Of a DNA stretch of 39,709 nucleotides, positions 29,610 to 39,709 are shown piece by piece. The DNA lies in sequence record PQ010280.1. One strand, written 5' to 3'. The DNA comes from Escherichia phage vB_EcoM_CQ615. Positions within the stretch are counted from its first letter, which is position 1. Each line of letters opens with the position of its first letter. The notes under the pieces are model-generated. The model had not been told where the DNA came from, did not search any database, and was given only the letters and a program-made list of their open reading frames with translations. The position numbers were made by a program, and so were the translations under genes.

Positions 29610-32600
29610 ATGGATAAGTACGATAAGAACGTACCAAGTGATTATGATGGTCTGTTCCAAAAGGCGGCTGATGCCAACGGGGTCTCTTATGACCTTTTAC
29701 GTAAAGTCGCTTGGACGGAATCACGCTTTGTACCCACAGCAAAATCTAAGACTGGACCATTAGGTATGATGCAGTTCACCAAGGCAACCGCTAAGGCCCT
29801 TGGTCTGCGAGTCACCGATGGTCCAGATGACGACCGACTGAACCCTGAGTTAGCTATCAACGCTGCTGCTAAGCACCTTGCAGGTCTGGTTGGTAAATTC
29901 GATGGTGATGAACTCAAAGCTGCCCTTGCGTATAACCAAGGCGAGGGACGCTTGGGCAATCCTCAACTTGAGGCGTACTCAAAGGGAGACTTCGCGTCCA
30001 TCTCTGAGGAGGGGCGTAATTACATGCGTAGCCTTCTGGATGTTGCTAAGTCACCTATGGCTGGACAGTTGGAAACTTTTGGAGGTATCACCCCAAAGGG
30101 TAAAGGCATTCCGGCTGAGGTAGGATTGGATGGAATTGGTCATAAGCAGAAGGTGACACAGGAACTACCTGAGTCCACAAGTTTTGACGTTAAGGGTATC
30201 GAACAGGAGGCTCCGGCGAAACCATTCGCCAAGGACTTTTGGGAGACCCACGGAGAAACGCTTGACGAATACAACAGTCGTTCAACCTTCTTCGGATTCA
30301 AAAATGCTGCCGAAGCTGAACTCTCCAACTCAGTCGCTGGGATGGCTTTCCGTGCTGGTCGTCTCGATAATGGTTTTGACGTGTTTAAAGACACCATTAC
30401 GCCGACTCGCTGGAACTCTCACATCTGGACTCCAGAAGAGTTAGAGAAGATTAGAACAGAGGTTAAGAACCCTGCGTACATCAACGTGGTAACTGGTGGT
30501 TCCCCTGAGAATCTTGACGACCTCATTAAGCTGGCTAACGAGAACTTTGAGAATGACTCACTCGCTGCCGAAGCTGGTCTAGGTGCAAAACTGAGTGCTG
30601 GTATTATTGGTGCTGGCGTGGACCCTCTTAGCTATGTCCCTATGGTCGGTGTCACTGGTAAGGGCTTTAAGTTAATCAATAAGGCTCTTGTAGTTGGTGC
30701 AGAAAGTGCTGCTCTGAACGTTGCATCCGAAGGTCTCCGTACCTCCGTAGCTGGTGGTGACGCAGACTACGCTGGTGCGGCCTTAGGTGGCTTTGTGTTT
30801 GGCGCTGGTATGTCTGCAATCAGTGACGCTGTAGCTGCTGGACTGAAACGCAGTAAACCAGAAGCTGAGTTCGACAATGAGTTCATCGGCCCTATGATGC
30901 GAATGGAAGCCCGTGAGACAGCACGCAACGCCAACTCTGCTGACCTCTCTCGGATGAACACTGAGAACATGAAGTTTGAAGGTGAACATAATGGTGTCCC
31001 TTATGAGGACTTATCAACCGAGAAAGGTGCCGTGGTGTTACATGATGGCTCCGTTCTAAGTGCAAGCAACCCAATCAACCCTAAGACCCTCAAAGAGTTC
31101 TCTGAGGTTGACCCTGAGAAGGCTGCGCGAGGAATCCAGCTTGCTGGGTTCACCGAGATTGGCTTGAAGACCTTGGGGTCTGATAATGCTGATATTCGTA
31201 GAGTGGCTATCGACCTTGTTCGCTCTCCTACTGGTATGCAGTCTGGTGCCTCCGGTAAGTTCGGTGCAACAGCTTCTGACATCCATGAGAGACTTCATGG
31301 TACTGACCAACGTACCTATAATGACCTGTACAAAGCTATGTCTGACGCTATGAAAGACCCTGAGTTCTCTACTGGCGGTGCTAAGATGTCCCGTGAAGAA
31401 ACTCGCTACACTATCTATCGTAGAGCGGCACTGGCTATTGAGCGCCCAGAGTTGCAGAAGGTACTTACTCCGTCTGAGAGAATAGTCATGGACATTATTA
31501 AGCGTCACTTTGACACCAAGCGTGAACTCATGGAGAATCCTGCAATCTTCGGCAATACGAAGGCTGTTAGTATTTTCCCTGAGAGTCGCCACAAAGGGAC
31601 TTACGTTCCTCATGTTTACGACCGTCATGCTAAAGCACTGATGATTCAACGCTACGGTGCCGAAGGTTTACAGGAAGGTATTGCTCGTTCGTGGATGAAC
31701 AGCTACGTCTCCAGACCTGAGGTCAAGGCCAGAGTCGATGAGATGCTTAAGGAAGTACACGGGGTGAAGGAAGTAACGCCAGAGATGGTAGAGAAGTATG
31801 CTATGGATAAGGCTTATGGTATCTCCCATTCCGACCAGTTCACCAACAGTTCCATCATTGAAGAGAACATTGAGGGCTTAGTAGGTATCGAGAACAACTC
31901 ATTCCTTGAGGCACGTAACTTGTTTGATTCGGACCTATCCATCACTATGCCAGACGGACAGCAATTCTCGGTGAACGACCTAAGGGACTTCGATATGTTC
32001 CGCATCATGCCAGCGTATGACCGCCGTATTAATGGTGACATCGCCATCATGGGGTCTACTGGTAAAACCACTAAGGAACTTAAGGATGAGATTTTGGCTC
32101 TCAAGGCGAAAGCTGAGGGTGACGGTAAGAAGACTGGCGAGGTTCATGCTCTAATGGATACCGTTAAGATTCTTACTGGTCGTGCTCGACGCAATCAGGA
32201 CACTGTGTGGGAAACCTCACTGCGTTCCATCAATGACCTAGGGTTCTTCGCTAAGAACGCCTACATGGGTGCTCAGAACCTTACGGAGATTGCTGGTATG
32301 ATTGCCACGGGCAACGTTCGTGCTCTAGGCCACGGTATCCCAATTCTGCGTGATACACTCTACAAGTCTAAACCAGTTTCCGCTAAGGAACTCAAGGAAC
32401 TCCATGCGTCTCTGTTCGGTAAGGAGGTGGACCAGTTGATTCGCCCTAAACGTGCTGACATTGTGCAGCGCCTAAGGGAAGCAACTGATACTGGACCTGC
32501 TGTGGCTAACATCGTAGGGACCTTGAAGTATTCCACACAGGAACTGGCTGCTCGCTCTCCGTGGACTAAGATGCTGAACGGGACCACTAACTACCTTCTG

Positions 32601-33566
32601 GATGCGGCACGTCAAGGTATGCTAGGGGACGTTATTAGTGCCACCCTAACAGGTAAGACTACCCGCTGGGAGAAAGAAGGATTCCTTCGTGGCGCCTCCG
32701 TAACTCCTGAGCAGATGGCTGGCATCAAGTCTCTCATCAAGGAACATATGGTACGTGGTGAGGACGGGAAGTTTACCGTCAAGGACAAGCAAGCGTTCTC
32801 TATGGACCCACGGGCTATGGACTTATGGCGACTTGCTGACAAGGTAGCTGATGAGGCAATGCTGCGTCCACACAAGGTGTCCTTACAGGATTCCCATGCG
32901 TTCGGAGCATTAGGTAAAATGGTTATGCAGTTTAAGTCTTTCACTATCAAGTCACTTAACTCTAAGTTCCTGCTAACCTTCTACGATGGGTACAAGAACA
33001 ACCGAGCGATTGACGCTGCGTTGACTGGTATCATCTCTATGGGTCTCGCTGGGGGTTACTACGCTATGGCTGCACACGTCAAAGCATATGGGATGCCTAA
33101 GGAAAAACGTAGGGAGTACTTGGAGAGAGCACTGGACCCAACCATGATTGCCCACGCTTCGTTGTCTCGTAGTTCTCAATTGGGTGCTCCTTTGGCTATG
33201 GCTGACCTAGTTGGCGGTGTTTTAGGGTTCGAGTCCTCCAAGATGGCTCGCTCTACGATTCTACCTAAGGACACCATGAAGGAACGTGACCCAAACAAAC
33301 CGTACACCTCTAGAGAGGTAATGGGCGCTATGGGTTCAAACCTTCTGGAACAGATGCCTTCTGCTGGCTTTGTGGCTAACGTAGGGGCTACCTTAATGAA
33401 TGCTGCTGGCGTGGTAAACTCGCCTAACAAAGCAACTGAGCAGGACTTCATGACTGGCTTGATGAACTCTACCAAGGAGTTAGTACCTAACGACCCTCTT
33501 ACTCAACAGCTTGTGATTAAGATTTATGAGGCCAATGGTGTTAACTTGAGGGAACGTAGGAAATAA
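29610..33566 (+). CDS. 16: Internal core protein D with N-terminal lytic transglycosylase domain (gp16)
   Basis: 1318 aa; N-terminal SLT-like motif (VAWTESRFVPTAKSKTGPLGMMQFTKATAKALG). Confidence 0.96.
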   Translation: MDKYDKNVPSDYDGLFQKAADANGVSYDLLRKVAWTESRFVPTAKSKTGPLGMMQFTKATAKALGLRVTDGPDDDRLNPELAINAAAKHLAGLVGKFDGDELKAALAYNQGEGRLGNPQLEAYSKGDFASISEEGRNYMRSLLDVAKSPMAGQLETFGGITPKGKGIPAEVGLDGIGHKQKVTQELPESTSFDVKGIEQEAPAKPFAKDFWETHGETLDEYNSRSTFFGFKNAAEAELSNSVAGMAFRAGRLDNGFDVFKDTITPTRWNSHIWTPEELEKIRTEVKNPAYINVVTGGSPENLDDLIKLANENFENDSLAAEAGLGAKLSAGIIGAGVDPLSYVPMVGVTGKGFKLINKALVVGAESAALNVASEGLRTSVAGGDADYAGAALGGFVFGAGMSAISDAVAAGLKRSKPEAEFDNEFIGPMMRMEARETARNANSADLSRMNTENMKFEGEHNGVPYEDLSTEKGAVVLHDGSVLSASNPINPKTLKEFSEVDPEKAARGIQLAGFTEIGLKTLGSDNADIRRVAIDLVRSPTGMQSGASGKFGATASDIHERLHGTDQRTYNDLYKAMSDAMKDPEFSTGGAKMSREETRYTIYRRAALAIERPELQKVLTPSERIVMDIIKRHFDTKRELMENPAIFGNTKAVSIFPESRHKGTYVPHVYDRHAKALMIQRYGAEGLQEGIARSWMNSYVSRPEVKARVDEMLKEVHGVKEVTPEMVEKYAMDKAYGISHSDQFTNSSIIEENIEGLVGIENNSFLEARNLFDSDLSITMPDGQQFSVNDLRDFDMFRIMPAYDRRINGDIAIMGSTGKTTKELKDEILALKAKAEGDGKKTGEVHALMDTVKILTGRARRNQDTVWETSLRSINDLGFFAKNAYMGAQNLTEIAGMIATGNVRALGHGIPILRDTLYKSKPVSAKELKELHASLFGKEVDQLIRPKRADIVQRLREATDTGPAVANIVGTLKYSTQELAARSPWTKMLNGTTNYLLDAARQGMLGDVISATLTGKTTRWEKEGFLRGASVTPEQMAGIKSLIKEHMVRGEDGKFTVKDKQAFSMDPRAMDLWRLADKVADEAMLRPHKVSLQDSHAFGALGKMVMQFKSFTIKSLNSKFLLTFYDGYKNNRAIDAALTGIISMGLAGGYYAMAAHVKAYGMPKEKRREYLERALDPTMIAHASLSRSSQLGAPLAMADLVGGVLGFESSKMARSTILPKDTMKERDPNKPYTSREVMGAMGSNLLEQMPSAGFVANVGATLMNAAGVVNSPNKATEQDFMTGLMNSTKELVPNDPLTQQLVIKIYEANGVNLRERRK

Positions 33567-33586
33567 TACGACTCACTATAGGGAGA
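33564..33586 (+). promoter_or_regulatory. Phage RNAP promoter phi17 (class III)
   Basis: taatacgactcactatagggaga overlapping the gene 16 stop. Confidence 0.85.
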
Positions 33587-33638
33587 GGCGAAGGAATCTT
33601 CTCCCTGTAGTCTCTTAGATTTACTTTAAGGAGGTCAA

Positions 33639-35300
33639 ATGGCTAACGTAATTAAGACCGTTTTGACTTACCAGTTAGATGGCTCCACTCGTGATTTTAA
33701 TATCCCGTTTGAGTATCTAGCCCGTAAGTTCGTAGTGGTGACTCTTATTGGTGTAGACCGTAAGGTCCTCACGATTAATACAGACTATCGCTTTGCTACA
33801 CGTACTACCATCTCTCTGACCAAGGCTTGGGGTCCAGCCGATGGCTACACGACCATCGAGTTGCGTCGAGTAACCTCCACGACCGACCGATTGGTTGACT
33901 TTACGGACGGCTCAATCCTCCGTGCGTATGACCTTAACGTCGCTCAGATTCAAACGATGCACGTAGCGGAAGAGGCCCGTGACCTGACTGCTGATACCAT
34001 CGGTGTCAATAATGATGGTCACTTGGATGCCCGTGGTCGTCGAATTGTGAACCTTGCTAACGCCGTGGATGACCGTGATGCTGTTCCGCTGGGGCAACTC
34101 AAGACCATGAACCAGAACTCGTGGCAGGCGCGTAATGAGGCCCTACAGTTCCGTAATGAGGCTGAGACTTTCAGAAATCAAGCGGAGGGCTTTAAGAACG
34201 AGTCTAGCACTAACGCTACGAACACTAATCAGTGGCGTAATGAGGCTAAGGGGTTCCGTGATGAAGCAGAGCAGTTCAAGAATACGGCTGGTCAATATGC
34301 TACATCTGCTGGGAACTCTGCTACTGCCGCACATCAATCTGAGGTGAACGCTGCTAACTCCGCAACTGCTTCCGCTAACTCTGCTACTCTGGCAGAACAG
34401 CAAGCAGACCGCGCCGAGCGTGAGGCTGATAAACTTGGTAACTGGAATGGACTTGCTGGTGCTGTAGATAGTGTTCAGGGTGATAGTGTATTCTGGAAAG
34501 GAAGCGGCTATTGGGTCGGAGGTCCCGTATACCAACTACAAACGAACCACGCGTTTAGGTTCCGTATGGGTCTTTGGGAAGAAGGCGACTTCCTTAAGTC
34601 TGACTTCGCTATGGACAGACCGGACGGCATAGGGTTCATAGAGTATGCAGCGGACAAGACTGGGCAACATTGTCACCAGATTCGACTTAATCAGTTAACA
34701 ATAGCTGGCGGTGTGTTAGAGTCAGATGCTGATGATCGCATAGCTCACGCTTTCGCTGACCAGTACAACACTAAAGCTCCTTTCTTCCAACAGATTCGTG
34801 CACAATCTACAAGCTCATATCACCCAATAATAAAGCAACGAACTTACCAATCTGGACGGTGGGCAGGATGCTGGTCTATCGGTACATTGCTGACTGGAAC
34901 GAGTCCGTCATTCCACATACATATGAAAGACGAAGGGATAGATGGGAAACTTTGGACGTTCAATACCAATGGAGACTTCCGCGCCCCTGGGGAGATTTGG
35001 GCCGATGGTGGACGTGTGGTTGTACAGAATGGCTCTTTTAACCCTGCTGGTAGAGTGTGGGGTACTGCGTATGATTCCGGATACCTTGACGACTGGGTTC
35101 GAAGACATTTCATAGGGGATGTATACCTAGGTCCTCATGTGTGGCAACAACAAACTGGAGGTTATCAGGACATTATAGCACCATCTGGGCATGTGCAAAC
35201 AGGTACAACCGCTAGTAATGGAGCCGTTGCGGGTATCTTTGTAAGACCGGTATGGCTTGGTTTCCATAACGGCACAAAAAGAATCATTGCGTCGCAGTAA
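33639..35300 (+). CDS. 17: Tail fiber protein (gp17) with a non-T7 distal (receptor-binding) half
   Basis: 553 aa; N-terminal about 270 aa (MANVIKTVLTYQLDGSTRDFNIPFEYLARKFVVVTLIG...; repeat region FRNEAETFRNQAEGFKNE) match T7 gp17; from about residue 272 (nt 34455) the sequence diverges (GSGYWVGGPVYQLQ...GIFVRPVWLGFHNGTKRIIASQ). Confidence 0.93.
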   Translation: MANVIKTVLTYQLDGSTRDFNIPFEYLARKFVVVTLIGVDRKVLTINTDYRFATRTTISLTKAWGPADGYTTIELRRVTSTTDRLVDFTDGSILRAYDLNVAQIQTMHVAEEARDLTADTIGVNNDGHLDARGRRIVNLANAVDDRDAVPLGQLKTMNQNSWQARNEALQFRNEAETFRNQAEGFKNESSTNATNTNQWRNEAKGFRDEAEQFKNTAGQYATSAGNSATAAHQSEVNAANSATASANSATLAEQQADRAEREADKLGNWNGLAGAVDSVQGDSVFWKGSGYWVGGPVYQLQTNHAFRFRMGLWEEGDFLKSDFAMDRPDGIGFIEYAADKTGQHCHQIRLNQLTIAGGVLESDADDRIAHAFADQYNTKAPFFQQIRAQSTSSYHPIIKQRTYQSGRWAGCWSIGTLLTGTSPSFHIHMKDEGIDGKLWTFNTNGDFRAPGEIWADGGRVVVQNGSFNPAGRVWGTAYDSGYLDDWVRRHFIGDVYLGPHVWQQQTGGYQDIIAPSGHVQTGTTASNGAVAGIFVRPVWLGFHNGTKRIIASQ

Positions 35301-35309
35301 GGAGGAACA

Positions 35310-35687
35310 ATGCGAGTATTTACTAACTGGAAGTGGACCGAAGGGTCTTACTTTGGAAAACCCATCTATGAGATTCGCGACAACAGTAACGTTGATTGGT
35401 ACACCTTAATGGATGAACTAGATGAGCGCCAAGAAACATGGGTGGTAGGTATTGGGCCTAGAGGAGACGTTATGTGGTTCACTGATGGACCCGTGTCTGG
35501 ACTGTACGTGCCTGTAGATGGAGGGACCGTTGTAGTAACTGATTCTTTCGAGTTCTCTGACAACTGGCGAGGGTGTACATGGGACGGTAAGAAATTCCAC
35601 GCACCAGAAGAAGCCCAGAAGCGAACTAAGGAGGACATTGAGCAGGACTTACTGAAACTCATGGCTGAGTTGAAGGGTCTAGAATAA
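35310..35687 (+). CDS. Hypothetical 125-aa protein between tail fiber and holin; candidate fiber-associated factor
   Basis: ATG 35310 with strong SD (taaggagg) overlapping the gene 17 stop; MRVFTNWKWTEGSYFGKPIYEIRDNSNVDWY...DNWRGCTWDGKKFHAPEEAQKRTKEDIEQDLLKLMAELKGLE; no gene sits here in canonical T7. Confidence 0.65.
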   Translation: MRVFTNWKWTEGSYFGKPIYEIRDNSNVDWYTLMDELDERQETWVVGIGPRGDVMWFTDGPVSGLYVPVDGGTVVVTDSFEFSDNWRGCTWDGKKFHAPEEAQKRTKEDIEQDLLKLMAELKGLE

Positions 35688-35708
35688 TTATAACAAGGAA
35701 AGGCGTGT

Positions 35709-35724
35709 GGTCCACGGATGGACC
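35709..35724 (+). promoter_or_regulatory. Short hairpin upstream of the holin gene
   Basis: ggtcca-cgga-tggacc: perfect 6-bp inverted repeat in the 17.5 leader. Confidence 0.35.
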
Positions 35725-35743
35725 CTTTAAGGGAGGACGCTAC

Positions 35744-35947
35744 ATGCTGTCTTTAGATTTTAACAATGAGTTAGTCAAGGCTGCACCTATTGTTGGCACA
35801 GGTGTGGCTGATGGCGCTGCGAGGCTTTTCTTCGGGCTGAGTCTTAATGAGTGGTTCTATGTTGCCGCTATCGCCTATACAGTGGTTCAGATTGGTGCCA
35901 AGGTAGTCGATAAGATGATTGACTGGAAGAAAGCTAATAAGGAGTGA
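35744..35947 (+). CDS. 17.5: Class II holin (gp17.5)
   Basis: 67 aa from the internal ATG with SD aagggagg; MLSLDFNNELVKAAPIVGTGVADGAARLFFGLSLNEWFYVAAIAYTVVQIGAKVVDKMIDWKKANKE. Confidence 0.85.
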   Translation: MLSLDFNNELVKAAPIVGTGVADGAARLFFGLSLNEWFYVAAIAYTVVQIGAKVVDKMIDWKKANKE

Positions 35948-35952
35948 TGCAT

Positions 35953-36222
35953 ATGGAAAAAGATAAGAGCCTTATCACGTTCTTAGAGATGTTGGACACT
36001 GCTATGGCGCAACGTATGCTTGCAGACCTTTCGGACCCTGAGCGGCGTTCTCCACAACTCTACAACGCCATCAACAAACTGTTAGACCGCCATAAGTTCC
36101 AGATTGGTAAGCTGCAACCAGATGAGCACATCTTGGGCGGTCTCGCTGGTGCTCTGGATGAGTACAAGTCTAAAGTTGGAGACGATGGTCTCACTGATGA
36201 CGATATTTACACTTTACAGTGA
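35953..36222 (+). CDS. 18: Terminase small subunit (gp18)
   Basis: 89 aa from the ATG after SD aaggag; MEKDKSLITFLEMLDTAMAQRMLADLSDPERRSPQLYNAINKLLDRHKFQIGKLQPDEHILGG... Confidence 0.85.
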   Translation: MEKDKSLITFLEMLDTAMAQRMLADLSDPERRSPQLYNAINKLLDRHKFQIGKLQPDEHILGGLAGALDEYKSKVGDDGLTDDDIYTLQ

Positions 36223-36262
36223 TATACTCAAGGCCACTATAGATAGTGGTCTTCATGGATGT
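36221..36262 (+). promoter_or_regulatory. Putative RNase III site (R18.5-like)
   Basis: gatatactcaaggccactatagatagtggtcttcatggatg hairpin. Confidence 0.45.
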
Positions 36263-36316
36263 CATTGTCTACACGAGATGCTCCTACGTGAAATCTGAAA
36301 TTTAACGGGAGGCATT

Positions 36317-36763
36317 ATGCTGCAATTTTTACGTAAGCTGGTCCCTTGGGTTCTCGCTGGGATGCTATTCGGATGGGGATGGCACCTTGGGGCAGACTCA
36401 ATGGACGCCAAGTGGAAACAGGAGGTACAGAATGAGTACGTTAAGAGAGTTGAGGCTACAGCGAGCACTCAAAGAGCAATCAATGAAATATCGGCTAAGT
36501 ATCAAGAAGACCTTGCCGCGTTGGAAGGGAGCACTGATAGGATTATTTCTGATTTGCGTAGCGACAATAAGCGGCTGCGTGTCAGAGTCAAAACTACCGG
36601 AACCTCCGATGGTAAGTGTGGATTCGAGCCTGATGGTCGAGCCGAACTTGACGACCGAGATGCTAAAAGTATTCTCGCAGTGACCCAACGGGGTGACGCT
36701 TGGATTCGTGCCCTACAGGACACTATACTAGAGCTACAGAATAAGCAGGAGGTTAAACAATGA
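36317..36763 (+). CDS. 18.5: i-spanin (Rz-like, gp18.5)
   Basis: 148 aa, N-terminal TM ([25 protein letters not shown]) plus coiled-coil periplasmic domain. Confidence 0.88.
36432..36683 (+). CDS. 18.7: o-spanin (Rz1-like lipoprotein, gp18.7), embedded in 18.5 in the +1 frame
   Basis: 83 aa from the internal ATG; lipobox-like [10 protein letters not shown] and proline-rich stretch; [59 protein letters not shown]... Confidence 0.75.
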   Translation: MSTLRELRLQRALKEQSMKYRLSIKKTLPRWKGALIGLFLICVATISGCVSESKLPEPPMVSVDSSLMVEPNLTTEMLKVFSQ

Positions 36764-38532
36764 GGAAAGGTGTATCCGCTCAGTCCAATCGTAATGCGCT
36801 CGTTGTGGCGCAACTAAAGGGCGACTTCGTGGCGTTCCTGTTCGTCTTATGGAAGGCGTTAAACCTACCAGTGCCTACTAAGTGTCAAATTGACATGGCT
36901 AAGGTACTGGCGAATGGGGACAACAAGAAGTTCATCTTACAGGCTTTCCGTGGTATCGGTAAGTCGTTCATCACTTGTGCGTTCGTTGTGTGGTCATTAT
37001 GGAGGGACCCTCAGTTGAAGATACTTATCGTATCAGCTTCTAAAGAACGTGCAGACGCTAACTCCATATTCATCAAGAACATCATCGACCTGCTACCGTT
37101 TCTCAGTGAGTTGAAGCCGAGACCCGGACAGCGTGACTCTGTGATTAGTTTTGATGTTGGCCCTGCTAGTCCTGACCACTCTCCTAGTGTGAAATCAGTA
37201 GGTATCACTGGTCAGTTAACTGGTAGTCGTGCTGATATTATCATTGCGGATGACGTTGAGATTCCGTCTAACAGTGCGACTATGGGTGCCCGTGAGAAGC
37301 TATGGACTCTAGTTCAGGAGTTCGCTGCGTTGCTTAAACCGCTGCCTACGTCTCGTGTTATCTACCTTGGTACTCCTCAGACTGAGATGACTCTGTATAA
37401 GGAACTGGAAGATAACCGTGGGTATACAACCATTATCTGGCCTGCTCTGTACCCAAGGACTCGTGAGGAGAACCTCTACTACTCTCAGCGTCTGGCTCCA
37501 ATGCTCCGTGCGGAGTACGATGAGAACCCTGAGGCACTCGCTGGGACTCCTACGGACCCTGTGCGCTTCGACCGTGATGACCTACGTGAGCGTGAGTTGG
37601 AATATGGTAAGGCTGGCTTTACGTTGCAGTTCATGCTTAACCCGAACCTGAGTGATGCCGAGAAGTACCCTCTGAGGCTCCGTGACGCTATCGTAGCGGC
37701 CTTAGACTTAGAGAAGGCCCCGATGCATTACCAGTGGCTTCCGAACCGTCAGAACATCATTGAGGACCTTCCTAACGTTGGCCTTAAGGGTGATGACCTT
37801 CATACATACCATGAGTGCTCAAATAACTCTGGTCAGTATCAACAGAAGATTCTGGTCATTGACCCTAGTGGTCGCGGTAAGGATGAAACAGGTTACGCTG
37901 TACTGTATACCCTAAACGGTTACATCTACCTCATGGAAGCTGGTGGTTTCCGTGATGGCTACTCCGATAAGACCCTTGAGTTGCTCGCTAAGAAAGCTAA
38001 GCAATGGGGAGTCCAGACGGTTGTCTACGAGAGTAACTTCGGTGACGGTATGTTTGGTAAGGTATTCAGTCCTATCCTTCTTAAACACCACAACTGTGCG
38101 ATGGAAGAGATTCGTGCCCGTGGTATGAAGGAGATGCGCATTTGTGATACCCTTGAGCCAGTCATGCAGACTCACCGCCTTGTCATTCGAGATGAGGTCA
38201 TTCGGGCAGACTATCAGTCCGCTCGTGACATAGACGGTAAGCATGACGTTAAGTATTCGCTGTTCTACCAGATGACCCGTATCACTCGTGAGAAGGGTGC
38301 TCTGGCTCATGATGACCGATTGGATGCCCTTGCGTTAGGCATTGAGTACCTCCGTGAGTCCATGCAATTAGATTCCGTTAAGGTCGAAGGTGAAGTGCTT
38401 ACTGACTTCCTTGAGGAACACATGATGCGTCCTACGGTTGCTGCTACGCATATCATTGAGATGTCTGTAGGAGGAGTTGATGTGTACTCTGAGGACGATG
38501 AGGGTTACGGTACGTCTTTCATTGAGTGGTGA
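36760..38532 (+). CDS. 19: Terminase large subunit (gp19)
   Basis: 590 aa; ATPase Walker A-like region (FRGIGKSF), nuclease domain; near-identical to T7 gp19 after the first residues. Confidence 0.97.
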
Positions 38533-38569
38533 TTTATGAGGCCAAGGAAGGCCGCTTTAAGGAGGTAAT

Positions 38570-39013
38570 ATGATAAGCAAGAAGAAGTATGTTGTCGATA
38601 AGGAGACTGGTTGCTGGAACTTTAAGGGATGTAAGACTAAGACTGGTTATGGTCGTATTCGCGTGAATGGAGTCCATTGGATGGCCCACAGGTATTCCCT
38701 GAGTTGTCATCTAGGCAGACCGATAGCTGACGAAATGGTTGTGATGCACATGTGTGATAACCCCTCATGTGTTAACCCTGAGCACCTTAAGGAAGGGACT
38801 CAGAAGGAAAACATAGAGGACTGCATATCAAAAGGTCGCGCAACTAAGGCCACAGGTAAACGCGATGCGTCGAAGAGAGACCCTAGCGAGGAACGTAAGG
38901 CTATAGTTATTCGTAGATACCATAAAGGCTGGACCGCAACGTCCATAGCGAGATACCATAAGCTCTCTGTGGCGTGGGTCAAGAGGGTCATTGAGGATTA
39001 CCTAAGTGATTGA
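38570..39013 (+). CDS. HNH endonuclease with C-terminal helix-turn-helix, directly downstream of the terminase
   Basis: ATG 38570 with SD aaggagg; 147 aa; GCWNFKGCKTKTGYGRIRVNGVHWMAHRYS...MHMCDNPSCVNPEHLKEGTQKENIEDC (classic HNH), then basic linker and HTH-like RRYHKGWTATSIARYHKLSVAWVKRVI. Confidence 0.8.
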   Translation: MISKKKYVVDKETGCWNFKGCKTKTGYGRIRVNGVHWMAHRYSLSCHLGRPIADEMVVMHMCDNPSCVNPEHLKEGTQKENIEDCISKGRATKATGKRDASKRDPSEERKAIVIRRYHKGWTATSIARYHKLSVAWVKRVIEDYLSD

Positions 39014-39064
39014 TATTTGAAATTAGTGATACAGGTCTAAGTGTATGATTACAGACCATTATTC

Positions 39065-39087
39065 TAATTCGACTCACTATAGGGAGA
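39065..39087 (+). promoter_or_regulatory. Phage RNAP promoter phiOR-like
   Basis: taattcgactcactatagggaga (one mismatch from consensus). Confidence 0.75.
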
Positions 39088-39178
39088 AGCCTACCTAAAG
39101 ATTACTATAAGACTTAAAGTTGCCTATAAGGTAGGTTGTTATTATTGTTAATACAACCAACATAAAGGGAGGAGACTC

Positions 39179-39328
39179 ATGTTCCGCTTATTGTTGAACC
39201 TACTGCGGCATAGAGTCACCTATCGCTTTCTTGTGGTACTTTGTGCTGCCCTTGGGTACGCATCTCTTAATGGAGACCTCAGTTCACTGGAGTCTACCGT
39301 TTGCTCTTTACTCACTTGTAGTGATTAA
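39179..39328 (+). CDS. 19.5: gp19.5-like small membrane protein
   Basis: 49 aa, SD aaagggaggag; MFRLLLNLLRHRVTYRFLVVLCAALGYASLNGDLSSLESTVCSLLTCSD. Confidence 0.75.
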   Translation: MFRLLLNLLRHRVTYRFLVVLCAALGYASLNGDLSSLESTVCSLLTCSD

Positions 39329-39399
39329 GGTATTCCTGACCGACTGACGGCTCACCGAGGGATTCGTAGGTATGATTACATCACACCAACTCATCCCTA

Positions 39400-39582
39400 T
39401 ATAGTCAAGTCCTAAGGTATACCCATAAAGAGCCTCTAATGGTCTATCCTAAGGTCTATACCTAAAGATAGGCCATCCTATCAGTGTCACCTAAAGAGGG
39501 TCTTAGAGAGGGCCTAGGGAGTTCCTAGAGGGTCCTTTAAAATATACCATAAAAATCTGAGTGACTATCTCACAATGTACGG
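39400..39582 (+). repeat. Right-end array of short CCTAAAG/CCTAAGG-type repeats preceding the terminal repeat
   Basis: agtcctaaggtatacc...atcctaaggtctatacctaaagataggcc...gtcacctaaagaggg; mirrors the left-end array. Confidence 0.5.
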
Positions 39583-39709
39583 ACCTAAAGTTCCCCCATA
39601 GGGGTACCTAAAGCCCAGCCAATCACCTAAAGTCAACCTTCGGTTGACCTTGAGGGTTCCCTAGGGTTGGGATGACCCTTTGGTTTACCTTTGAGTGTCT
39701 CCTTGTCCC
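39583..39709. repeat. Right copy of the direct terminal repeat (runs to the window end)
   Basis: Identical to 1..127; upstream 39569-39582 (tctcacaatgtacgg) resembles the start of the T7 terminal repeat, so the true repeat is probably about 141 nt or more. Confidence 0.9.

Follow-up and report, generated by a model that had tools for sequence, protein, structure and literature searches.

A probable short-form tail-fiber assembly gene between the fiber and holin genes of a T7-like phage covaries with the C-terminal end of the fiber

We analyzed a 39,709-nucleotide stretch of DNA from Escherichia phage vB_EcoM_CQ615 (accession no. PQ010280.1; one strand, 5' to 3'; the window, below), a Teseptimavirus whose closest relative in GenBank is phage N30 (94.6% nucleotide identity over positions 30000 to 39709). 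All the features discussed here lie on the plus strand. The tail-fiber region begins with a T7 class III promoter in the phi17 position (33564 to 33586), which has no mismatches to the 23-nt consensus; in the T7 annotation, phi17 likewise stands just upstream of gene 17. The next T7 consensus promoter is at 39065, none lies between gene 17 and the open reading frame (ORF) that concerns us, and neither a plus-strand sigma-70-like promoter nor a terminator was found around this ORF. Judged from these signals, the promoter at 33564 to 33586 is the one that drives gene 17 and, with no signal intervening, the ORF. Gene 17 is composed of three parts. Codons 1 to 270 (33639 to 34448) encode a T7-type N-terminal tail-attachment domain and shaft (Pfam Phage_T7_tail, E = 1e-73), in which 26 to 30 residues of each 30-residue block are identical to T7 gp17; codons 271 to 487 (34449 to 35099) encode a foreign tip body, recognized by its divergence from T7 and presumed to bind the receptor; and codons 488 to 553 (35100 to 35297) encode a C-terminal end resembling that of the phage Mu S fiber, which is the putative docking site of the ORF product. 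The first-pass annotation of this DNA had described the distal half of gp17 as swapped, and the comparison agrees, with at least 87% identity to T7 per block up to residue 270 and divergence thereafter. The ORF (35310 to 35687; ATG at 35310, TAA at 35685 to 35687) follows, and its 125-aa product, in all probability a short-form tail-fiber assembly protein (see below), has a beta-rich N-terminal domain (aa ~1 to 100) and a C-terminal heptad helix (aa 107 to 124; 35628 to 35681). A spacer (35688 to 35743), which in a side-by-side comparison is homologous to the T7 17-17.5 spacer, then leads to the class II holin gene 17.5 (35744 to 35947; ATG at 35744), which is nearly invariant whatever type of ORF precedes it. 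As had been pointed out earlier, T7 passes from gene 17 directly to gene 17.5: in its annotation, gene 17 (34624 to 36285) is followed by a 58-nt spacer and gene 17.5 at 36344, with no gene between them. The spacer contains a hairpin, GTCCACGGATGGAC (~35711 to 35724), that is conserved in T7 ahead of gene 17.5 and possibly serves in RNA processing or translational control.

The gene 17 stop codon (TAA, 35298 to 35300) is separated by 9 nt from the ATG of the ORF, which is in the same reading frame, and is overlapped by a Shine-Dalgarno sequence, TAAGGAGG (35298 to 35305), placed 4 nt 5' of that ATG. The coordinates, the translation, and this overlap all agree with the initial description of the gene, and the overlap suggests that translation of the ORF is coupled to that of gp17. 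A readthrough fusion of gp17 and the ORF, for which the shared frame in the window might speak, was rejected because in phages WW2, Koku, and D226 the gap measures 10, 11, or 13 nt, none of them a multiple of 3. Intramolecular chaperones of the K1F and T5 pb1 type form the C-terminal part of the fiber polypeptide and are cleaved off; the ORF is not of this type, being a separate gene with its own Shine-Dalgarno sequence and ATG after a TAA stop. That the ORF is more than a chance reading frame follows from its dN/dS of 0.10 to 0.15 (against N30, AV103, and Pila) together with its homologs in 55 phage records and ~27 representative clusters. The product is an acidic, soluble protein of 14.5 kDa (pI 4.5) with no transmembrane segment or signal sequence. 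The GC content of the ORF (47.7% versus 48.6% for the window) and its typical GC3 give no convincing signal of foreign composition. The fiber-end codons (35100 to 35297) have a GC3 of 33% versus ~50% in neighboring genes, at a normal overall GC and over 66 codons only.

Homologs of the ORF were recovered in at least 55 GenBank phage records (tblastn, E <= 0.01), with N30 carrying the same gene at 96.8% amino acid identity; 1,039 records match the region, and in the whole phage collection, the ORF is carried by only 55. An exhaustive HMMER search of 1.84 billion representative proteins yielded 29 matching clusters, of which ~27 are true members of 113 to 143 aa. Hence, the label "orphan" that the ORF had first been given does not hold. 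Two very large proteins, P0030 (5,792 aa) and P0038 (1,066 aa), reached E values of 1e-20 and 7e-7 against the family profile by way of 11 and 6 weak repeated matches to aa ~23 to 74 of the ORF, and both were rejected as homologs and judged to be repeat-summed artifacts, the evidence for this coming from P0038 alone, in which Ig_7 repeats accompany a T9SS sorting domain. A scan of IMG/VR with family peptide patterns matched N30 alone, and word-index homolog searches returned close relatives only, for short and classical forms alike. The gene is kept across several Studiervirinae genera and in Straboviridae.

We inspected 17 loci, namely, the window and those of N30, AV103, Pila, C5, Bas104, 04922B, UFV01, Koku, YSYH, D226, pEp_SNUABM_09, Bumbleweed, WW2, JA10, Cronus, and ST2 (whose record is probably chimeric, with no more than a fragment of the fiber gene ahead of the ORF). 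In all 17, the homolog starts 2 to 18 nt after the stop of the tail-fiber gene, and a holin gene follows it wherever downstream sequence is present. The sequence TAAGGAG overlaps the fiber stop in 9 of 12 pairs, the exceptions being Bumbleweed, Lecl302, and Cronus. The record of "Escherichia phage ST2" (accession no. OM982647.1) is a 171-kb "partial genome" filed under Kagunavirus, in which positions 161593 to 171086 hold an endolysin, a gp16-like transglycosylase, the fiber fragment, the short tail-fiber assembly (Tfa) gene, a class II holin, and a small-terminase fragment; this T7-like block beside T4-like genes looks like a chimeric or misbinned assembly.

The short form is little recognized in databases. 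Among the 49 GenBank records listed at E <= 0.01, 43 call it "hypothetical protein" or "ssDNA-binding protein" or leave it without annotation, and a few pipeline-annotated records name it "tail fiber assembly protein." The Bas104 short form, from the same study as Bas103 (see below), is likewise a "hypothetical protein" in GenBank. The label "ssDNA-binding protein" is attached to short Tfa homologs in phage VAC1 (accession no. MZ428229, 5959 to 6342) and phage HZP2 (MK542821/NC_048164, 197 to 595) and is almost certainly a misannotation. In phage CICC 80001 (NC_027387, 1268 to 1471), tblastn matches only aa 1 to 68, and the BFVD version has 109 aa; this copy may be truncated or frameshifted. 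In the literature, we found no experimental study of the short form.

Sequence searches of Pfam, NCBIfam, and the Protein Data Bank (PDB) with the ORF or its profile gave only subthreshold noise (CspC/CspE, S-layer, and MdcH), and the sole library match of the ORF was phrog_136, "tail fiber assembly protein" (E = 3.4e-5). An AlphaFold2 model from 12 sequences (mean pLDDT, 89; pTM, 0.71) has a beta-rich domain with one helix, followed by the C-terminal helix of residues 107 to 124. Foldseek comparison of the model with solved structures recovered chain B of 5YVQ (probability 1.00; TM, 0.58/0.69), with all others at E > 2; this chain is the phage Mu tail-fiber assembly protein, crystallized on its fiber. 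Structure prediction of the ORF alone thus gave the N-terminal domain a TfaMu fold, with 5YVQ chain B as the only real match. Among predicted viral structures, the neighbors from outside the family are proteins of 137 to 199 aa, mostly named tail fiber assembly protein. At the sequence level, when a profile made from 14 diverse short forms was compared by hhalign with one of the classical Tfa proteins, the two aligned over ~93 columns (residues 24 to 121 of the short form and 34 to 139 of 174 in the classical form; E = 1.7e-5) at a probability of 78%, where 90 to 95% is usual for certainty. The classical profile in turn matches Mu Tfa by sequence (E = 9e-12). The W-x-G-x-x-(W/F) pattern that had suggested a loose likeness to Tfa chaperones is recovered in this alignment, where W-D-G-K-K-F of the ORF falls on WWWDGEKLTW of classical Tfa. 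Of the profile relationships considered at the outset, that to classical Tfa is suggested by hhalign and phrog_136, and that to the Pfam domain Caudo_TAP (PF02413) was not found.

The window ORF is unmatched by Caudo_TAP at E <= 1, as are the tested short forms of C5, Koku, SNUABM09, Cronus, JA10, and D226, and the short forms P0037, P0041, and P0033 are unmatched at E <= 0.01. In contrast, SPLA4 and Leclercia phage 10164-302 encode 174- to 175-aa proteins at this position, and these match it with E values of 3e-11 and 2e-10. What the short form lacks is the last ~35 residues of classical Tfa, i.e., the ..AWRxYR...VDLS..P...WPxKPE motif. A conserved role in oligomerization has been proposed for this C-terminal motif in its general form, ..L..W..YR..L..VD.S..P...WP..PE. 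The ORF ends after a single helix, RTKEDIEQDLLKLMAELKGLE. No other part of the family is as well conserved (RTKEDIxxDLxKLxxEL is kept in the most distant members), and the helix has a clean heptad a/d register (I110, L114, L117, L121, and L124). Without the proposed oligomerization motif, the short form may work differently. Another class of proteins encoded next to fibers, the gp38 adhesins of T2, T6, and S16, are ~260 aa long, about twice the length of the ORF, and have glycine-rich motifs and hypervariable loops at the receptor-binding tip; the ORF was rejected as a candidate adhesin of this type, having 125 aa, no glycine-rich repeats, and a fold that matches TfaMu only.

The partner of the ORF product can be approached from the fiber side. 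A profile built from the C-terminal ~100 residues of 12 such fibers, run against PDB, matched Mu S at residues 437 to 503 of 504 (E = 2e-3, a weak match restricted to the extreme C terminus) and T7 gp17 at residues 434 to 480 (E = 5e-4, the junction motif described below); when the single gp17 tip sequence served as the PDB query instead, only antibody noise came back. The fiber end of the window, which we assign to the Mu S/P2 H type, has the sequences APSGHVxTG, (V/I)RPV, and NGT...AS in common with Mu S. With a structural homolog of the ORF on the one side and a sequence homolog of the fiber end on the other, the two correspond to the two chains of one crystallized complex. Parts of the gp17 tip weakly resemble segments of T4-like gp34 and gp37.

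A second kind of evidence comes from covariation, measured as Pearson and Mantel correlations with ORF identity over 16 fiber/ORF pairs. ORF identity follows that of the fiber end (aa 481 to 553) closely (r = 0.91, P = 1e-4), that of the tip body (aa 271 to 480) less so (r = 0.61, P = 1e-4), and that of the N-terminal domain of the fiber weakly (r = 0.32, P = 0.06). In partial correlations, the fiber end retains its signal when the body is controlled for (r = 0.87, P = 1e-4), whereas the body has none when the end is controlled for (r = -0.37, not significant). Within the ORF, the N-terminal domain carries the covariation signal (r = 0.91), and the C-terminal helix is more uniformly conserved. 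Two contrasts illustrate why we regard the ORF as coupled to the fiber end rather than to the tip body. Pila has only 29% identity to the window in the tip body but 84% in the fiber end and 86% in the ORF; conversely, C5, 04922B, UFV01, and Bas104 have 84 to 92% identity in the tip body but 55 to 57% in the fiber end and 41 to 44% in the ORF. Thus, the tip body, as far as the alignments go, recombines independently of the ORF.

The nucleotide alignments place the limits of what is exchanged. Against 04922B and C5, the window has 83 to 100% identity up to ~35100 and 27 to 67% from there to ~35760, with recovery within the holin gene; against Pila, it has 35 to 55% over 34500 to 35100 and 75 to 97% from 35100 on. 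The right junction is at the ORF stop in the comparison with T7, and divergence extends to about 35760 to 35880 in those with C5 and 04922B; the downstream holin is nearly invariant across phages and, therefore, lies outside the cassette. Given the breakpoints at ~35100 and after the ORF stop, the invariant holin, and the T7-type spacer, the exchange unit is the last ~65 fiber codons plus the ORF (about 35100 to 35690, ~590 bp). Covariation of adjacent DNA can stem from linkage alone, but the invariant holin and the recurrent left junction would count against this. The left edge of the cassette lies inside the motif G(T)xW..YLDDWVRRHF. A longer form, DGxIxGTxW..WLDxxLRxxF, is seen at 34998 to 35120 of the window (gp17 aa ~454 to 494) and at aa 434 to 480 of T7 gp17 and is common to Mu-S-like and T4-like fibers. 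As this junction motif coincides with the recurrent recombination junction, it may be a natural linker for tip exchange. The first-pass annotation had envisaged a gene acquired with a new receptor-binding domain; the part of that proposal that stands is travel with the last ~65 fiber residues (from ~35100 on), and the part that does not is travel with the tip body.

The same cassette slot can also be filled differently. Fibers of SPLA4, Leclercia 10164-302, ESh2, and Bas103 combine a similar tip body with a different end (...QWRVMQYxRNxGQRxNxY), and in these phages a classical Tfa of 174 to 175 aa occupies the slot. Fibers that match at least 80% of the tip occur in 21 phage records, of which 20 were matched by name; every one of the 20 has a Tfa-like gene: 16 have the short ORF (seen at the locus or by tblastn), and 4 have a classical Tfa (2 at directly inspected loci and 2, a duplicate Leclercia 10164-302 record and 10164RH, by tblastn). 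Co-occurrence of a gene of this kind with the fiber tip, on which the chaperone proposal had been staked, was thus found throughout the named records. In the BASEL-2 study, Bas102 to Bas104 are reported to depend on the restored O16 O-antigen of Escherichia coli K-12; given the 84 to 92% identity of the tip body to those of Bas104 and its like, a glycan of the O-antigen type may be the target of the window fiber as well.

Tfa genes after gene 17 are already known in T7-like phages. Gene 17.2 of Kvp1 was annotated as a Tfa gene in 2008 (PMC2579914), and for the Tfa of the Teseptimavirus Bas103 EmilieLinder ("Gp60"; accession no. PQ850602), a Mu-like hexameric fiber-Tfa complex was predicted in the BASEL-2 study in 2025 (PMC11990801). 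Both are of the classical form. Together with those of SPLA4, Leclercia 10164-302, and ESh2, they share the gene 17-Tfa-holin order with the window but differ from its ORF in size (174 to 175 aa), in matching PF02413 (E, ~1e-10), and in a C terminus of the form ...AWRxYRLAxxKVDLSVLPFYDWPEKPE, and they are 16 to 19% identical to it; their partner fibers resemble that of the window in parts of the tip body (aa 271 to 498) and have a different end. TfaMu (U), which pairs with S in 5YVQ, has 175 aa and a conserved two-helix C-terminal domain, in contrast to the 125 aa and single heptad helix of the ORF, at an identity of 12 to 13%; moreover, Mu deploys the pair on a myovirus side fiber with an invertible G segment, whereas the window has a podovirus T7 gp17 and no G segment. 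A further connection leads to T4-like phages. In Cronus, a T4-like Erwinia phage, a homolog 40% identical to the ORF occupies the gp38 slot, flanked by the genes for the distal long tail fiber and the holin; Cronus and the T7-like phages have 42 to 50% identity in the fiber end (with one group) and 40 to 44% in the ORF but only 9 to 17% in the rest of the fiber. IT22 gives a tblastn match similar to that of Cronus, and the "tail fiber assembly proteins" of Klebsiella T4-like phages give weak full-length matches. The likeness to T4 gp38 and lambda Tfa is one of locus position. Gp25 of the myocyanophage Pam3, a simplified relative of TfaMu likened here to the ORF by its description, follows the same two-part logic, with an N-terminal beta domain that holds the distal fiber and a helical C-terminal part that trimerizes in a 3:3 complex (PMC9608196); it differs from the ORF product with its single helix in having a multihelix C-terminal domain and a fiber that is TNF-like with a glycine-rich part.

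The fold, the profile homology, the invariant position, and the covariation with the fiber together argue that the ORF product is very probably a chaperone of tail-fiber assembly, a shortened version of the Mu/lambda/P2 Tfa type. The role of fiber chaperone, one of those proposed for the gene from the start, thus gains from the TfaMu fold, the Tfa profile homology, the position in 17 of 17 loci, and a covariation of r = 0.91. Against it count the lack of a Caudo_TAP match and of the classical C-terminal motif, the modest hhalign probability, the weak match of the fiber end to Mu S, and the native tip of T7, which folds without any chaperone. We envisage that the ORF would be made late from the gene 17 transcript and coupled to gp17 translation by the Shine-Dalgarno sequence overlapping the stop. 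Its variable N-terminal domain (aa ~1 to 100, TfaMu fold) would bind the last ~65 residues of gp17 (~488 to 553), and the C-terminal heptad helix, RTKEDIEQDLLKLMAELKGLE, would gather three chaperone-bound chains. The foreign distal fiber might then trimerize in register from its C terminus, as proposed for Mu Tfa and Pam3 gp25. In the Mu Tfa class, a variable N-terminal domain is likewise combined with a conserved C-terminal helical part, and in-register trimer folding is proposed to start from the C terminus (PMC9608196). Binding, its stoichiometry, the need for the ORF product in fiber folding, and its fate after assembly would, by analogy, follow these systems.

On this last point the known systems diverge: Mu and Ur-lambda Tfa stay on the virion fiber, and T4 gp38 and Pam3 gp25 are absent from virions (PMC9608196). 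The ORF product could likewise stay on the mature fiber tip as a cap or adaptor, aiding receptor recognition or transiently masking the tip, a reading that extends the chaperone role and does not exclude it. In favor of this, Mu Tfa, the one relative recovered by structure, reportedly remains attached to the distal fiber of mature particles (PMC9608196), a transient "chaperone cap" has been described for Alteromonas phages (PMC10579305), and the Shine-Dalgarno sequence overlapping the stop suggests near-equimolar synthesis with gp17. Nevertheless, we consider such a cap or adaptor the less likely course, since virions contain neither T4 gp38 nor Pam3 gp25, which are of the same functional class (PMC9608196), and cassettes of one type are joined to unrelated tip bodies in phages of different hosts. 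Because Pila (Serratia) and N30 (E. coli) have this cassette type in common, host specificity seems to reside in the tip body and not in the cassette.

The early suggestion that the ORF is a moron (for superinfection exclusion or antidefense), or another accessory gene that has no link with the fiber and lies in a permissive intergenic site, would account for the absence of the gene from T7 and most T7-like records and for the annotation of most copies as "hypothetical protein." Morons are recognized by an autonomous promoter and/or terminator and an atypical composition. Neither a promoter nor a terminator was found that would serve the ORF alone, which would be transcribed late with structural genes; its product has no transmembrane segment or signal sequence and no match in PADLOC, its Tfa-fold N-terminal domain covaries with the fiber end, and the gene also follows the fiber gene in T4-like phages, whose fiber is unrelated; this suggestion has accordingly become highly improbable. 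Equally slight is the chance that the ORF is a decaying, nonfunctional remnant of a classical 175-aa Tfa retained by linkage to the fiber end, as might be read from its alignment to only residues 34 to 139 of classical Tfa without the terminal motif and from the CICC 80001 copy, matched over aa 1 to 68 only and perhaps truncated further, given the dN/dS of 0.10 to 0.15, the uniform 113 to 143 aa of ~27 clusters, whose highly conserved C-terminal helix has stayed intact down to the most distant of them, the retention across several Studiervirinae genera and Straboviridae, and the confident AlphaFold2 fold.

Taken as a Tfa-type chaperone, the gene can be annotated as a tail-fiber assembly protein (short form). 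For Tfa biology, it offers a compact natural variant without the Caudo_TAP motif and, with that, a simple means of testing what in Tfa is essential. More speculatively, and improbably in our judgment, it might represent a minimal Tfa lacking the Caudo_TAP C-terminal domain, in which either a helix of ~20 residues suffices or the protein acts differently, e.g., as a removable cap, and the ~590-bp cassette might be portable as a means of mounting foreign tips on T7 gp17, joined at DGxIxGTxW..WLDxW(L/V)R. T7 is the standard chassis for host-range reprogramming by gp17 swaps. The data indicate that tips with a Mu-S-like end need the cognate chaperone gene to be moved along with them, and they supply a natural, repeatedly used junction at gp17 aa ~488 (nucleotide ~35100), with the right bound at or just after the ORF stop. 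Current understanding is not overturned, and a specialist would not be surprised: the gene belongs to an ordinary phage class, here in a little-recognized short form, and is useful for annotation and for the engineering of T7 fibers.
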